This document shows, one piece after another, positions 6,334-23,033 of a stretch of DNA of 26,453 bases (its first letter is position 1; every line of letters starts with the position of its first letter). Source of the DNA: a virus (taxonomy: Duplodnaviria > Heunggongvirae > Uroviricota > Caudoviricetes); IMG/VR virus record IMGVR_UViG_3300005528_000049; one strand, written 5' to 3'. The notes beneath the pieces are model-generated. The model had not been told where the DNA came from, did no database searches, and saw nothing but the letters and a program-made list of their open reading frames with translations. The translations under genes and the position numbers were made by a program.

Positions 6334-6407
6334 GGTCCTATAGCCCAATTGGAAGAGGCGGTAGACTTAGAATCTATTCAGTGAAAGTTCAAATCTTTCT
6401 AGGACTA
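6334..6407 (+). tRNA. tRNA-Leu(UAG) with a short 5-nt variable loop
   Basis: Acceptor ggtccta/taggact; gcc/ggc D stem; gtaga-CTTAGAA-tctat; gaaag-TTCAAAT-ctttc; A73. Confidence 0.85.
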
Positions 6408-7229: not shown

Positions 7230-8286
7230 ATGAAAACAATTACTTCTACATATTATAATAAAATTCAACCTCTTCTACAAAGTCTTTAGACAATTAGAAG
7301 AAGATGTAATTAATATTAATTTAGAATTAAATTATGATTGGTCTAATCTAGACTTACTTCAAATTCTAAGTAACAAAACAAGTTTAATTGATACTATAAA
7401 AGCTAATTTTAAATTAATAGAAGATTTAGAAGTTGCAGAAGAACTAGAACTAGAACTAGAACAAGATGTGTTAAATATTACATCTAAATTAGATTTGTTT
7501 TTACATACTTGGCAGATTAATAATCTATTCACAGCTAAGTATGATATTAATAATTGTATGTTATATGTTATAGCAGGAGCTGGTGGAACTGAAGCTTGTG
7601 ATTGGGCCAAACAAATACTTCAAATGTATTATAATTGGTTAAAAGATAATAACTATAAGTATAGTTTAATTGATATTCAAGAAGGAGATGTAACAGGTAT
7701 TAAATCAGCCTGTGTACTTATTGAAGGAGATTATTCTTATGGTTATTTAAAGAATGAAAGAGGAAATCACAGACTGCAAAGAGTCTCACCTTATGGTGGA
7801 AAGGATAAAAGACATACCTCTTTTTGTGGTGTTGAAGTTGAACCTATAATTGTTAATTCTCAATTAACAATTAACCCTAAAGATCTAATAATAGATACTT
7901 TTAGAAGTGGTGGAAAAGGAGGACAAAATGTTAATAAGGTTGAAACTGCTATTAGAATAACTCACATACCAACTGGTATTGCAGTTAAATGTCAAGAGAC
8001 TAGATCTCAGCATGAGAATAAGCAAAGAGCCTTAAAACTATTAACTTCTAGACTACAACTAATAAAAGATAATGATGAATTTACAGAGCTGCAAAGTACT
8101 AAAGAAGGTGTATTAGACACTGGATTTGGAAGTAGAATAAGAACATATTCTATTCATCCATATACCCTTGTAAAGGATGATAGAACAGAATGTCAAACGT
8201 CAGATGTATATGGATTTCTGGAAGGTAAATATCTAACAGAATTCATATTAGAAAACTTAAAAATCAAAACTCAAAACTCAAAATAA
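7230..8286 (+). CDS. prfB: Peptide chain release factor 2-like protein, ~351 aa through a +1 frameshift at CTT-TAG (7284-7289)
   Basis: GGQ motif (RSGGKGGQNVNK) and RF2-type tripeptide SPY (HRLQRVSPY...RHTSF). ATG 7230 reads 19 codons to CTT TAG; the +1 frame is open from 7234 to 8286 and has no ATG before the conserved domains. Confidence 0.85.
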
Positions 8287-8291
8287 ATAAA

Positions 8292-8980
<689 letters not shown>

Positions 8981-11050: not shown

Positions 11051-13222
11051 ATGTTTAATACTAGACTGGAGTTAGAACAGAGTATTGTTCTTCTAACTAA
11101 AGTTGGCTCTACTTTATATGGTACAAGTGTAGAAGGTTCTGATGTTGATAGAAGAGGCATTTGTATTGCCCCTAAACAATATTATATTGGTATCACCCCA
11201 GAACCTTTCTACTTACAGGAAAAGAATCAATTATTTACTGATTCTGAGCCTTGTATGTATCCTTATTTAACAGGCCAAGATAGTAAGATCTTAGAACTTA
11301 CAAAGATGATAGAACTGCTATTACAGAATAATCCAAACTGTTTAGACTTACTTTATAGCCCTGAATATGATGTATTAGATCCAGTTATTTATCCTCTAAT
11401 TAATTTTAGAAATGCCTTTCTATGTAAGACAGCAAGATGGTCTTACGGTCAGTATGCTAAAGACCAAATTAATAAGTGTAACACTCATAGAGGGTGGTTA
11501 TTAGAATATAATAAGAACCCTAACTTTTTTAATGAACAACCTAAACCAGAAGATTTTGGCCTAGATGAGAATCTATTAAGAAAAGACTATAATATGTTTT
11601 TAGAATTATTATATGTCTTATTATTAGATGCTAAAACATTTCATCTAGATAGAGAGCCAACCTTAGAAGAGCTGTTTAGTAAGGTGGACTATAAAGGTCT
11701 GCTTATAAGAAACTATGTTCCAGATGAGGTTGAACAGTATGTTGGCTATTTAGTCAAGGCTGATTCTAATTATATGGACTATCTTAAGAGAACTAAATTG
11801 TATCTTAAGGAGTTAAATAAATATAAGAACTATCAATCCTGGAAGGCTAATAGAAACTCTAAGAGAGCTGAACTAGAAGCTAAGGTAGGTTATGATGGTA
11901 AACACCTTAAACTATAGTATAATAATATTATTGTTTATTATATAGTTTATGCGTTTACACAAAAAGGGTTATTTAACTAAAATTGAAAATATCAAGAATG
12001 AATTTATGTTAGTTTCAGAAAAACATGAAGATCAATATCTAAGTAATACATTCTTAAAAAAATAATGGCTATAATTATTTACTTTGTGCTATACAAAGAA
12101 CTGGATTATCATTTAGTGAATTTTTAACTTATATAAATTATGAGATTAAGTTTACACCTAAGAATTATTATAAAGATATTAATAATGTAAATACTGAAAT
12201 ATATAAGTTAGTTGATAAGTATGGGTATTTTCCCTTAGATCCATCAATAATAAGTATAGAACATAAATCTCAGTTAGTATCATGTTTACCTAAATTTCAT
12301 AACATAACTCTAGTACAACATTTAAAAGCATTAAATTTATATGTTAAGAATACTAAGTCTTGTCTTGAAATATATGTAAAATCATTACTTGATAAATTCA
12401 TATTAGATAAAAACTTTATTGATAATGGAAGAAAACAATTACTTGAAAAAGGTCTTTTACTAAAGAATCCTGAAACTAATATGTTTTTAGAATTAGATAG
12501 ATATTATTTTGATGCTAAAGTAGCTATAGAAATTCAAGGTCAACAACATTATAAAGAAACTAAATTTTGGGATAAATCTAGACTAAATGATGTTAGAAAA
12601 ATTGATCAGATTAAAAGAGAATTGCTAAAAGAACAAAATATTCATTTAATTGAAATACATTATCAAAGAATTGGTAAACAAACTATATATGATCAGTTAG
12701 AATACTCTGGGGTGTTAAAACTCTGTGAAAAGGAGAAACTCTTTGAATAAAGACAATTCCTTACCAAGCTATATTTGAAAGAATGTAGAAAGGTCTAACG
12801 ACTAGATATGAGGCTAAGGAGCAATCTATGCCAATAAAATTATCCAAGAGCGCAGGGGAACGGTTTATCTAATATAAACACGAAGAAATAGTCTGAACTA
12901 TATGGTGACATATAGAATTATAGGATAAAGAGCCTATAAGATAACAAAATTGGGACACGCTGTAAGGCTATATACTATGGCTTGTGAGATAGTTGAAAGT
13001 CAACAAGTCTTAGTTGACAGAAAGGCTGTTGGTGATGTTGACTATTTGAAAGCTATTAGACAAGGTAATGTTACATATGATGAAATATTAATTTATGTAA
13101 CACAACTAGAAGCTAGATTAGAAAAAGCTTTTATTGATACAAAATTACCAGAAAAACCAAACACTAGTCTTATTAGTGAATTACAAATACAAATAATAGA
13201 AAATTACTCTTTTAAAAACTAA
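11051..13222 (+). CDS. Pol-beta-superfamily nucleotidyltransferase (RlaP/PF10127-like), exons 11051-11908 and 12953-13222, 375 aa spliced
   Basis: GSTLYG.....SDVD motif. Splicing restores GYDGKHL|GHAVRL, which matches the family GYD.KH..H..RL spacing; exon 2 has L.AIRQG...YDEI. Confidence 0.85.
11909..12952 (+). mobile_element. Group I intron (IA-like) with an endonuclease ORF in the P1 loop
   Basis: 5' splice site after U, 3' site after G (ataacaaaattG). IGS ggggtgtt (12709-12716) pairs with exon aacacctt. R: ggtctaacgactag; S: gaagaaatagtctg. Confidence 0.9.
11949..12750 (+). pseudogene. Vsr/DUF559-like PD-(D/E)XK intron endonuclease broken by a +1 shift in an A7 run
   Basis: ATG 11949 stops at TAA 12063 after A-run 12056-12062. 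The +1 frame is open from 12058 to 12750 and includes LELDRY...AIEIQGQQHY...DQIKR. Removing one A gives 266 aa. Confidence 0.75.
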
Positions 13223-14710: not shown

Positions 14711-15178
14711 ATGTATAACAGTAATAATGATGGTGTAGATCATATAAATATCTATTCTCAAGGTAAAACAGTACTAGGTTGTTTTTTATCCAATTGGTAT
14801 AGATATCCTATTGTTCTTGGGGGATTAGGCAGATTTGAATCAGTTGAAGGCTTGTGGTATTACATTAGCACAAGAGATGAAAGATTGAGAAATATGTCTG
14901 GTTTTGCTGCTAAGAAGTTAGGCAAATCTTTACCAAAAGTTGTAGATATTTCAGATGATCTGTTTAAAGAATGTATTAAAGTTGCAATCAAAACTAAGAT
15001 TTGTGGCAGCCCATTTCACATTCAATTTGTTGAATCTGTTTTACCATTTGATCATTATTATGTTTTTAGTGGCAAACAAGTAGATGCTGGTCATAAATGG
15101 ATTGTAGAATATATAACTCATTTAAGACAGCAGCTTAAGGATGATCTAAACAGGGGAAATATTAAAATTGTTACCTGA
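14711..15178 (+). CDS. NADAR-superfamily-like phage protein
   Basis: DGVDHINIYS.GKT.LG.FLSNW...F.SVEGLWY...AKKLG pattern. Confidence 0.6.
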   Translation: MYNSNNDGVDHINIYSQGKTVLGCFLSNWYRYPIVLGGLGRFESVEGLWYYISTRDERLRNMSGFAAKKLGKSLPKVVDISDDLFKECIKVAIKTKICGSPFHIQFVESVLPFDHYYVFSGKQVDAGHKWIVEYITHLRQQLKDDLNRGNIKIVT

Positions 15179-15342: not shown

Positions 15343-18300
15343 ATGATACCAGTTGTACAAGAAGAGTTTAAGTCTAATTTAAAACAGAGTTTCTTTTCTA
15401 TAGATGAAAGTCAAACTGCTTTAATATTAGGCATTCTAAGAAATAATATTTATACTAATCCATTATTGGCGGCTTTTAAAGAAACGTTCTCTAAAAATAT
15501 TATTATATTTAAGTAAATAAATAATATAAGACAGTTGGAGCTTTAAGAAGTAATTCTTATTGAAAAATCCTGTGAATTGCTGGAAACCCCTTACAAGTAT
15601 TCATAAATACTTAAGTCGAGGCAATCAGCAGCAAAGCTTATACAGAAATGTATTTGAATGTTCAGAGACTATCTCTTAGATTAAATAATCTATTATGTTA
15701 TAAAAACATAACGAGCCTAAGTATTTTTTATAATATATGGTGATAAGGAGACAAGAGCGCAGGACATCCTAACTAATTAGGATGATGATATAGTCCGAAC
15801 TTTATAGAAATATAAAGAAATAAAGGATAAAGAGCCTTTATGATAACAAATTGAACGCATTAGATGAACATATAAAGCATGATATTAAAAAACCTATAGA
15901 TATATTTCTACCTAATCATTTTGATAATCATCTTGTTATTAGAGATTATGCTAAAGGTCTAAGTAGGGACTTTATGACTAATTATTATACTAAGGTTGGT
16001 TACTCAACAAAGTCTAATAGTAATGATCTATTAGGTGGATAAACATATATAGTTGATGTTTAACTATGTATTTTTTGATATAATTAGATAATAAATTTAT
16101 TATCTAATAATGAAATATACTGATGAGTTTAAAAGTATTGATACTCCAAATAAAGCTTATTTACTAGGTCTTATATATAGTGATGGAACTATTATAAATA
16201 ATATAGGACAACAATATGCTTGCAGAATAAAGATTAATGATGTTGAATTATTATATAAAATAATAGATGTTTTCCCTTTCTTTTGTGTCCCTAAAAAGTC
16301 TAAAGATGAAAAGAGTTGGTATATCTATTGTTATAGTAAACAATATGTTATTGATTTAATGAGTCATGGTTTAGTGCCAAGCAAAAGTATAAAAAATATA
16401 CATCTTTTAGGTAATCCTGGTATTTTACTATATCCAGGAGATTTCTTAAGAGGTGTTTTTGACGGAGATGGCAATGTTTATGTAGATTCTAATAATAATA
16501 AAAAAATTACAATTTATGGAAACTGCGCTTCTTTCTTTAAATACTTAATTGGAATATATGATGAATATGATATTAGATACAGTTTGGTTTCAAGAAGAAA
16601 TCAATATGAACTAAAAGTAGGTCGTCAAGCTAGTATGATAAATATAGTTAATCTAATGACAAATAATGATGCTTTATATATGCAAAGAAAGTGGGATGTA
16701 ATAAATAATCTTACTTGGAAATCAGCACATACTAAAAATAATCAGTATAACAAAAAACCATGTCCACTTTAAACTGGATGAATTGCTGGAAACCCCACTA
16801 ATTAAGATTAAGGGCAATCAGCAGCCAAGCTCTGTAGGAAAGAGAAGGTTCAGAGACTATCTATATTATTTTATATCCACACCAAGAGTGTGAAAAGATA
16901 TGTTAAAAACAAAAGAAAACATTTCAATATTGATGGGAATTATTTTTGGAGATGGTTGTGTTGCAAAACCTAGTCATGCTTCATTATCTGGTAGATTAAG
17001 TATTACTCACTGTCTAAAACAAAAAGAATATTTAGAGTGGAAAGCTAATTTAATTAGAAATATCTTTCAATCTAATATAAATGTTAGACAAATAGTTAAT
17101 AATGGATATCCTGCCGTTGTCTTAGAAAAAGGACATAAATATTTTAGAGTTTTACATAGATATTTATATAAAAATAAAGTAAAAACTATACCTCTTAAAG
17201 CTTTAAATAGACTAACTCCTATAGGATTAGCTATTTGGTGGATGGATGATGGTTCTTTATATCCTAAAAAAAGAAATGGCAAGATACATGCTTGGGAATT
17301 AATTCTTAGTACTTATTTATCAAAAGAAGAAAATGAAACAATAGTTAAATATTTTCAAGATAAATGGGATATTACTTGGAAGATAACAAAGCATAAAAAT
17401 CTATACAGACTAAGAATGTCTACTAAAGAAGGTAGAAGATTCTTAGAAATAGTAAGACCTTATGTTAATCAAATTGAATGTATGAAGTATAAAGCAATAA
17501 ATATATAGTAAAGCGTCCAGCATTAACTATTTTTATAGTTAATGATGATATAGTCCATGCTTGTAGTAATACAAGATAAACATGTTGGTCTAGGTAGAAT
17601 GTCTCCTTTAGCATATACTGATATGTATGTGGTAATTAGTATTACAGAAGAAGAAGAAGGCAGAGTTAGATGTGAATATGTAATATCTAAAGACAATAAT
17701 AAGGTCTTTTGTTCATTGCTATCTAAAGAGAAAACAACTCAAGATACAGGGGTAGAGATATCTTTTGAGATTAAAGAGAATGATGTTATTAATATTTGTA
17801 GATATGTAACTAATAATACTAGATATTTATATAATGTTTTAGTTGCAGTTGATAAGGAATTAGTTGTCCCAGAACAAGTTATTAAAGAAGGAAGACATTT
17901 TAAAATTGTTAGAAGTGATACTTATCCTAATAATTTATTTGGCTTGATTGGCGGCTTACCTAATAAAATAGAGCTATCTAATTATAAAGAAGTTTTAAAT
18001 TCACAAGACCTAGATTACTTGTCAAAAGTCAATACAAATAAAAAGTTTATATTTGATATTGAAATTGGTAGAGTTGATCAATCAGCAGATAAAGATATAC
18101 AATTAAGTCAGAAGACTAAAGTATATATTGCTGAGTGTTTGTCTAATATTGTTGCAGAATATAAAGAATATGTAAAAGAACAAATGGAAATGTTTGAACA
18201 TTGGGATGATGTTCAATCTTTCTTATCAAGTAGTAATTTACTCTTTGGGCCAATTAAGTGGAAGGATAATCCTATATCTTATAATAGCTGGCTAAAAGAA

Positions 18301-21805: not shown

Positions 21806-22273
21806 ATGATGTTTAATAAAAGAAAGTTGATGAGAAATCTTGCAAGTATTATGGACTTTCTAACATATAATAGATATGTTAAAGTTGTATATCTATTGTG
21901 GCTGGTTCAAACAGTTTCTTTGTTTATTATGTATCTAGTTACAAGAAATCCAGTAACATATAGCATAGTAAGCTTAATTTGGTTTTTTATTGTACTTTAT
22001 ATTATTGTTACAGATGGCTGGACATCCTACAAGGATTCCAAATACATTAAAGAGCTAGAAGATAAACTTTATGCCTTAAATGATCCAGAGCTAAAGATTG
22101 ATTTGGCCGCAGTATGTCACAACATTTGGTCTGAAGATATTGGAGAAAGTTCTAATAATCCTGTAGAAAATAGCAGAGCTAGTGTATGTTATGACTCTTT
22201 AACACCAGAAGAAAAAGAGGTCAATCTAAAGAAGGCTTCATTGATTTTAGATACTGTTAAAAACTATGTCTAA
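21806..22273 (+). CDS. Membrane protein with two TM segments and an RyR-repeat-like C-terminus
   Basis: Hydrophobic stretches at about residues 25-70; CHNIW...YDSLTPEEKE at the C-terminus. Confidence 0.6.
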   Translation: MMFNKRKLMRNLASIMDFLTYNRYVKVVYLLWLVQTVSLFIMYLVTRNPVTYSIVSLIWFFIVLYIIVTDGWTSYKDSKYIKELEDKLYALNDPELKIDLAAVCHNIWSEDIGESSNNPVENSRASVCYDSLTPEEKEVNLKKASLILDTVKNYV

Positions 22274-23033
22274 TTGTCCTATAATGAAGCGTCTTAAAGA
22301 GAATTATGAGGAAAGACAAACTCAATACTTATTAAGAAGAATACCTGTTATTGGCAGGCTTGATGGAATTACCTTTAGTTCTTATACTGCTGAGTTAAAG
22401 GATAAGTTCAGTCCTGAATTTATGGAAGTAATGGATGAAACTGGCATTTTCTTAGCTAAGTTAATGCAGGGTTGTCAACTGATATACATTCAATCTGATG
22501 AGATAAGTGTCTTTCTTCATGATTATAAAAACCTTCAATCACAAGCTTGGAGAAATTATAACCTTAATAAAATGCTCAGCGAAAGTGCAAGTGAAGCTGG
22601 TGGTAGATTTTGCTTAAGTAGTTGGAAGATTTGGGGTGATAAAACACCTAAAATTGAAAACCAAAAGTTTGCAAAGTTTGACTCCAGATTTAATAACTAT
22701 CCAGAAGCTGAGGTTAATAATTACTTTGTTGCAAGACAAAGAGACTGTATTAAAAACAGCATCCAAGCTTTAGGACAAACTCTATATAGTCATAATGAAC
22801 TAGATAGAAAGAATATGTCTCAAGTGCAAGATATGTGCTTTGAGAAAGGCTATAACTGGAATAATTTACCTGTTAGTTATAAAAGAGGTAGATGTATTAT
22901 CAAAGAAACTTACATTCATTGTTATGTTGGAGATAAACCAGTTTATAGATCTAGGTGGGTTGTTGATAATAACATTCCTGAGTTTAGTAAAGATAAAAAC
23001 TATGTTGAGCAGTACTTAGCTGTCAATTATTAA
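22266..23033 (+). CDS. tRNA(His) guanylyltransferase Thg1-like protein (3'-5' polymerase)
   Basis: RLDG..F, YIQSDEIS, FDSR, RQRDCIKNSI and YKRG motifs. Confidence 0.92.
   Translation: MSNCPIMKRLKENYEERQTQYLLRRIPVIGRLDGITFSSYTAELKDKFSPEFMEVMDETGIFLAKLMQGCQLIYIQSDEISVFLHDYKNLQSQAWRNYNLNKMLSESASEAGGRFCLSSWKIWGDKTPKIENQKFAKFDSRFNNYPEAEVNNYFVARQRDCIKNSIQALGQTLYSHNELDRKNMSQVQDMCFEKGYNWNNLPVSYKRGRCIIKETYIHCYVGDKPVYRSRWVVDNNIPEFSKDKNYVEQYLAVNY

Follow-up and report, generated by a model that had tools for sequence, protein, structure and literature searches.

Bacterial prfB autoregulates at a CTT-TGA frameshift site, as its product RF2 reads UGA; UAG is read by RF1. What, then, could a UAG codon at such a site report to a factor of RF2 type? 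The question is raised by a release-factor gene in a 26,453-nucleotide stretch of Caudoviricetes DNA (IMG/VR record IMGVR_UViG_3300005528_000049; the whole stretch is referred to below as the window), in which an RF2-like protein is reached through CTT TAG. The prfB frameshift is a textbook example of autoregulation through recoding, in which the product reads its own sensor codon. That logic has so far depended on UGA or UAA being used universally, and a 2025 survey stressed that no genome used UAG (PMC12421855). Here, a natural lineage combines a UAG sensor with a change in the recognition loop, at the single residue by which RF1 and RF2 differ in third-base reading. The reading that we favor, and consider fairly probable from comparative sequence evidence, is that the gene belongs to an RF2 subfamily (named RF2-Q) that would have acquired UAG reading and be autoregulated on UAG via a CUU-UAG +1 frameshift.

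Reading frames and shift site

The features of the gene on which the argument depends are as follows.

7230..7289, + strand: leader ORF in frame 0; ATG, 19 sense codons ending in CTT, then TAG
7282..7304, + strand: invariant 23-nt block GT CTT TAG ACAATTAGAAGAAGA, from the aligned window, L029, and L030
7284..7290, + strand: +1 shift site CTT TAG A; CUU would slip to UUU, with AGA read next
7288..8286, + strand: main ORF (+1 frame; 332 codons plus TAA), encoding P0001, a class I release factor of RF2 type
7468..7470, + strand: GTG, the gene callers' start (272-aa product), rejected as the true start
7777..7779, + strand: Gln183 (CAA, full-length numbering), aligned with Val190 of T. thermophilus RF2 and Gln181 of RF1
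7786..7794, + strand: SPY tripeptide (TCA CCT TAT), RF2-type SP(F/Y), from sequence and alignment
7918..7926, + strand: GGQ catalytic motif (GGA GGA CAA), its column invariant in alignment A2

Re-reading of the sequence bore out the preliminary description of the locus in its main outline: an ATG at 7230 followed by 19 codons and CTT TAG A, a +1 frame open through GGQ to a product of about 351 aa, and no Shine-Dalgarno (SD) element before the site. The leader codons, as translated from the window, are MKTITSTYYNKIQPLLQSL; the TAG occupies 7287–7289 with A as the next base, and the leader frame, if read beyond it, meets TAA seven codons on. From AGA 7288 to the TAA at 8284–8286, the +1 frame runs through 332 codons without a stop, giving 351 aa in total with the leader. 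It is closed upstream by a TGA at 7231–7233, and its first start codon is the GTG at 7468. At 29% GC, where ~8% of random codons are stops, the chance of at least 88 open codons 5′ of the first conserved start-like codon is ~6e-4, and random openness of the frame is not a plausible explanation. A purine run resembling an SD element is absent 5′ of the window's shift site (...CAAAGT CTT TAG A, in the phage clade).

An RF2 protein with an RF1-like residue

Pfam analysis of the +1 frame identified PCRF (PF03462, 9e-38) and RF-1 (PF00472, 2e-35) domains, and the best solved relatives are RF2 chains (224 bits, with RF1 chains at 157 bits). The RF1 hallmark PxT is absent, SPY taking its place, and RF1 sequences form the outgroup with 100% support. 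The hallmarks of RF2 were found (PCRF, RF-1, and GGQ; SP(F/Y); placement in the RF2 clade) with the exception of Val at T. thermophilus position 190. The preliminary description had singled out the SPY loop; the tripeptide is indeed present at 7786–7794, but it is not unusual, SP(F/Y) being a recognized normal RF2 motif (PMC4530459).

In the alignment, the discriminating change is Val to Gln, not SPY, and the Gln had been missed earlier. The recognition loop of the window protein reads HRLQRV-SPY, with the HTS threonine unchanged. The residue three before the Ser is Gln in this protein and Val in 197 of 209 other RF2 sequences; the sole Gln among those 209 is that of locus L138, which itself carries CTT TAG. 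Gln fills this position (alignment column 523) in 12 of 12 RF2-Q members and 4 of 4 RF1 sequences, replaces Val in P0001–P0004 and in a second clade, and lies in a local context, HR-x-Q-R-V/I, common to the window factor and RF1. An unbiased column scan of RF2-Q against the 209 other RF2 sequences returned only three separating columns, the first of them Val-to-Gln.

Structural work offers a role for both residues: RF1 Q185 (E. coli numbering; Gln181 in T. thermophilus) contacts A3/G3, and RF2 V190 makes an unfavorable hydrophobic contact with O6 of a third-position G that aids discrimination (PMC5776981). Another of the three columns (Eco 327) is two residues away from D329, a position at which laboratory mutants acquire the reading of UAG and UGG (PMC7530605). 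The combination of Ser and Gln could admit UGG too; UGG reading by laboratory RF2 mutants is toxic (PMC7530605).

CTT TAG accompanies the Gln residue

Gln-type genes were recovered in 12 diverged lineages: the window, L029, L030, L122, L123, L124, L125, L132/133, L134, L136, L137, and L138. In 12/12, a leader ends at CTT TAG and the protein lies in the +1 frame. The preliminary description had proposed checking whether homologs keep CTT-TAG, and had named continuous homologous ORFs as the finding that would speak against it; the site and its leader are kept throughout the Gln-type lineages, each gene being broken in the same way. Outside the phage trio (the window, L029, and L030), the leader runs to 20–29 codons ending in CTT TAG. 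A cyanobacterial-chromosome clade comprises L122, L123, L124 (an uncultured MAG), L125 (a Chamaesiphon MAG), L136, and L137; L132/L133, L134, and L138 are further lineages of phage-like context. Cyanobacterial members read ...CGG AGT TAC CTT TAG C, with an SD-like GGAG upstream and a leader that ends in ...RSYL* as in ordinary prfB, and the L138 site, GAGGAG-TCG-CTT TAG C, has exactly the canonical spacing. In L137 (a 198-kb cyanobacterial contig), RF2-Q stands ~2 kb from pyrH and frr, the latter encoding ribosome recycling factor (1–802 and 2821–3834), a neighborhood not common to the other loci.

Control loci included 80 ordinary bacterial RF2 genes from a search of metagenome contigs with P0001, matched via the word KGGQNVNK. 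Among 84 RF2 loci without the Gln, 72 have CTT TGA, one GTT TGA, and five CTT TAA; six have no site, and none has TAG. Across 8,164 bacterial genomes, prfB sites were likewise 98.6% TGA and 1.4% TAA, with no TAG (PMC12421855). The five CTT TAA loci (L051, L052, L059, L066, and L090, all metagenomic RF2 genes with the site preceded by ...GAGGTTAT or ...GGGGTTAT) are in line with this 1.4% class. As candidate shift sites, the occurrences of GGAGGGGT CTT TGA/TAG in L003–L009 were rejected: they lie inside continuous short RF1-type ORFs (GGVFEF or GGVFSF).

The association also holds within single genomes. In each of two MAGs, that of Chamaesiphon and a second one, RF2-Q is a third paralog, beside a normal RF1 (Gln, with PLT or PAT) and an RF2 whose shift site is CTT TGA C; the sensor codon of the paralogs differs there together with the residue. 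The ordinary RF2 of the uncultured RF2-Q-bearing MAG (L129, genome G001) has CTT TGA C and, at the Val190 position, Glu (HRMERI-SPF).

RF2-Q genes are rare. When 185,579 species genomes were screened with a degenerate DNA pattern of the Gln motif, 2 matched; a pattern of that kind had no match in IMG/VR, nor did a search of genome contigs with P0016 give any.

Proposed autoregulation on UAG

Ribosomes would start at ATG 7230 and translate the 19 leader codons, bringing peptidyl-tRNA-Leu onto CUU with UAG in the A site, where two outcomes would compete. A UAG-reading factor would free a 19-residue peptide; alternatively, the tRNA would slip to UUU, AGA would be read, and the 351-aa factor would be made. 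Output of the factor would rise when UAG termination capacity is low and fall when it is high. The RF2-Q factor itself probably reads UAG, since Gln is the solution that RF1 uses for accepting G at position 3. If it does, the loop would be true autoregulation, the sensor codon having changed together with the specificity. Reading of UAA and UGA may also be kept, because the Ser of SP(F/Y) is retained. To the phage, such a gene, standing as it does among RNA-repair and tRNA genes, would provide extra termination capacity during infection, UAG included.

In E. coli assays of CUU shift-site variants, UAG served as the 3′ codon (PMC5009743), and CUU-UAG would thus be competent to shift in principle. 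Shift efficiency at the phage site may be low, since the SD-like stimulator is absent and the base after UAG is A, a context shared with four ordinary TAG stops of the window.

A bolder form of this reading, which we advance only tentatively and hold to be less likely true than not, is that RF2-Q is a natural omnipotent class I factor of bacterial type, reading UAA, UAG, and UGA. Ser would admit A or G at position 2 and Gln A or G at position 3, with UGG excluded or kept harmless by the UAG-keyed control. With a factor of this kind, the phage would need neither of the host release factors.

The strongest alternative, unlikely in our estimation but deserving of serious attention, is that the factor reads only UAA and UGA, and that the UAG site ties its synthesis to the RF1 activity of the cell, supplying more RF2-type capacity (e.g., for UAA) when host RF1 is scarce or inactivated. 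The tripeptide swap of Ito et al. in 2000 reportedly established that third-base choice is set by the third residue of PxT/SPF; as that residue is still F/Y here, the model predicts no UAG reading. SP(F/Y) and the HTS threonine are both unchanged. Moreover, UAG is read by host RF1, which makes the site necessarily responsive to RF1 regardless of what the phage factor recognizes (PMC5009743). However, an RF1 sensor leaves the fixed Gln unexplained, present as it is in 12/12 TAG-type genes and 0/208 other RF2 sequences, and it gives no reason for cyanobacteria with an autoregulated RF2 to keep a second one tied to RF1. Gain of UAG recognition and sensing of host RF1 shortage were the two options left by the preliminary description; the comparative evidence favors the former, though through the Val-to-Gln change and not through SPY.

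Conservation in phage relatives and alternatives without a frameshift

Two diverged phage relatives, L029 (a 137-kb contig; 88% aa identity) and L030 (81%), share with the window the ATG, the 19-codon leader length, and CTT TAG A. Around the site, 23 of 23 columns of the block at 7282..7304 are invariant, as compared with 54–59% in the flanks, making it the longest invariant run in 440 nt across the three phage lineages. A search for RNA structure or a stimulator at the site found no covariation, and an outer stem is broken in L029; the invariant block is not explained by any conserved RNA structure. Substitutions among the three lineages fall mostly at third codon positions in leader and body alike, and the body of the gene is, by this pattern, under purifying selection.

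A second alternative, which these data make very unlikely, dispenses with the frameshift: translation would begin at an internal start (GTG 7468 or a later ATG), yielding a truncated factor, and the leader and upstream frame would be relics. Gene callers do propose such products (272, 241, and 236 aa), and release factors without domain 1 exist, such as PrfH/RF-H (PDB matches). However, the start codons are not conserved: the first start-like +1 codon is codon 61 in the window, and 89 and 93 in the two relatives. Position GTG 7468, considered as a start in the preliminary description, lacks a start-like codon in L029 and L030, and the later starts at codon 89 or 93 would remove domain 1. Further, in every lineage the +1 frame runs without a stop from the shift site onward and can be aligned with RF2 domain 1. 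The length of the leader is conserved, as are CTT TAG and the 23-nt block, and the same architecture recurs across lineages only ~43% identical.

The remaining alternative holds that the break is an artifact of assembly, a frame lost recently by mutation (a pseudogene), or the mark of a recoded phage in which TAG is a sense codon. Large phages with TAG recoded to Gln and an RF2 of their own are a precedent (preprint 10.1101/2021.08.26.457843), but this alternative is highly improbable and already contradicted by the present data, given the identical sequence in many independent assemblies and runs, the purifying selection on the body with its mostly third-position changes, the TAA met within 7–9 codons in all three phage lineages when TAG is taken as sense, and the fit of code 11 to a window in which eight genes end in TAG. 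The window DNA was found to be identical (100%) in nine independent assemblies, and also in freshwater runs of several further studies; it is present on metagenome contigs of up to 216–228 kb and in freshwater and lake runs. A contig from an RNA library spans 7234–8944 with 0 differences and 0 gaps, a match that may reflect DNA carry-over and does not imply transcription; the comparison used Logan contigs, in which rare edited forms would not show. Judged from these sequences, the site is neither an assembly error nor a recent mutation, and assembly error, pseudogene, recoded TAG, and internal initiation are all poor explanations of it.

Origin of the subfamily

Maximum-likelihood trees recovered the main RF2-Q group (14 rows) as one clade (SH-aLRT 94–97), nested in the cyanobacterial RF2 group (SH-aLRT 99) with L129, the RF2 of one MAG, as its sister. 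The next-best scores of an RF2-Q profile are also cyanobacterial RF2 sequences. Phage and cyanobacterial members share ~43% identity. L138, with SAF in place of SPF and without the other clade-specific residues, is placed apart by the free tree (95% SH-aLRT); as a single clade survives the AU test (p = 0.2), two joint origins of Gln and TAG cannot be claimed. The association may go back to one event, retained over very long branches.

Relation to known systems

Bacterial prfB (in E. coli, SD-N3-CUU UGA C) resembles the RF2-Q genes in its leader of ~20–25 codons ending in CUU, its +1 slip onto UUU, and the +1-frame location of the complete functional protein. Cyanobacterial RF2-Q further keeps ...RSYL*, the SD-like GGAG, and the homologous position of the site. 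The difference lies in the sensor codon, which is UAG in RF2-Q and in neither prfB (0/8,164; PMC12421855) nor our controls (0/84). The phage version additionally differs in having no SD-like element, a 3′ A for C, and a site ~6 residues nearer the LEE motif. The likeness to RF1 (prfA) lies in the Gln at the position reading the third stop-codon base, with its local context; SP(F/Y) stands here where RF1 has PxT, and tree and sequence place the factor inside the cyanobacterial RF2 group. To our knowledge, RF1 genes carry no frameshift.

Laboratory RF2 variants that gain UAG termination (E167K, E170K, E172K, K177R, and D329A/G; PMC7530605) are built, as RF2-Q is, on an RF2 scaffold. However, E167, E170, E172, and K177 read D, E, D, and K here, and none of the variant positions is changed; in RF2-Q it is a recognition-loop Val that has become Gln, and the laboratory variants also read UGG and are toxic.

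Among phages, the TAG-recoded Lak and Agate phages carry RF2 and the TGA-recoded Jade phages RF1 (preprint 10.1101/2021.08.26.457843). The window gene is comparable as a class I factor of a large phage among translation genes; it differs in that no frameshift is mentioned in the same preprint and the window shows no recoding. Two other full-length phage RF2 genes from IMG/VR have a canonical CTT TGA with SPF (L001) and a continuous ORF (L002). The latter, a huge-phage homolog on a 391-kb contig (IMGVR_UViG_3300028898_000252), has SEF in place of SPF and Lys at the Val190 position, and may be another factor of altered specificity. Mimivirus and Megavirus provide a viral parallel, as their eRF1 genes are reported to need frameshift or readthrough at stop codons for expression (PMC3521657); they are likewise viral release-factor genes in need of recoding, but encode a eukaryote-type eRF1 of an unrelated protein family in viruses of eukaryotes.

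We found no description in the literature of a release-factor gene with a CUU-UAG shift site, and a literature search for the strings CUU UAG and CTTTAG returned primers only. A 2016 recoding review (PMC5009743) and the 2025 prfB survey (PMC12421855) knew of no CUU-UAG case. The RF2-Q subfamily is previously unnoticed; its genes would be easily missed in annotation, as gene callers start them at internal codons. If the factor reads UAG, the subfamily would put the autoregulation logic to a natural test, would supply natural evidence on stop-codon specificity that bears on the dispute between structural and tripeptide models, and would point to a possible route to single-factor termination, of interest for genetic-code engineering. 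For phage biology, a regulated termination factor joins the translation-maintenance genes of large phages.

Phage setting

The window has 27–33% GC, nearly all of its ORFs on the + strand, many small genes, two tRNAs, an SPFH gene, and the following RNA-repair and translation-maintenance genes identified with Pfam; this gene content is the make-up of a large phage.

156–1211, 2490–4052, 11051–11917, 22266–23033: RNA ligase, Ro-like DUF2828/DUF7788, RlaP nucleotidyltransferase, Thg1-like

The Ro-like protein near the release-factor gene finds its best match in Synechococcus phages B3 and B23 (50%), and an SD-like 4-mer at −17 to −4 precedes only 2 of 38 + strand ORFs. The Ro-like match and the near absence of SD-like motifs hint that the phage belongs to the cyanophage gene pool. 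A release factor was looked for in Synechococcus phage B23 and not found, and a 544-aa window protein had no match among cultured phages.

The 38 ORFs of the window end in TAA (27), TAG (8), or TGA (3), each TAG being followed by A or T. With eight of 38 ending in TAG and code 11 fitting the window, the earlier remark that amber does not appear to be reassigned, as other window genes end in TAG, stands.

A tRNA-Leu with anticodon UAG is encoded at window positions 6334–6407, 0.9 kb upstream of the release-factor gene. It is pure speculation that this phage tRNA reads the shift-site CUU by U-U wobble, in which case weak P-site pairing could favor the +1 slip.

Elsewhere in the window, a group I intron was identified at 15518–15817 (Rfam, 75.7 bits), between ORFs 14711–15178 and 15851–16042. 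Downstream of it are LAGLIDADG-type ORFs at 16110–16772 and 16900–17508 (faint or plain Pfam matches), and the host gene of the intron is probably split.
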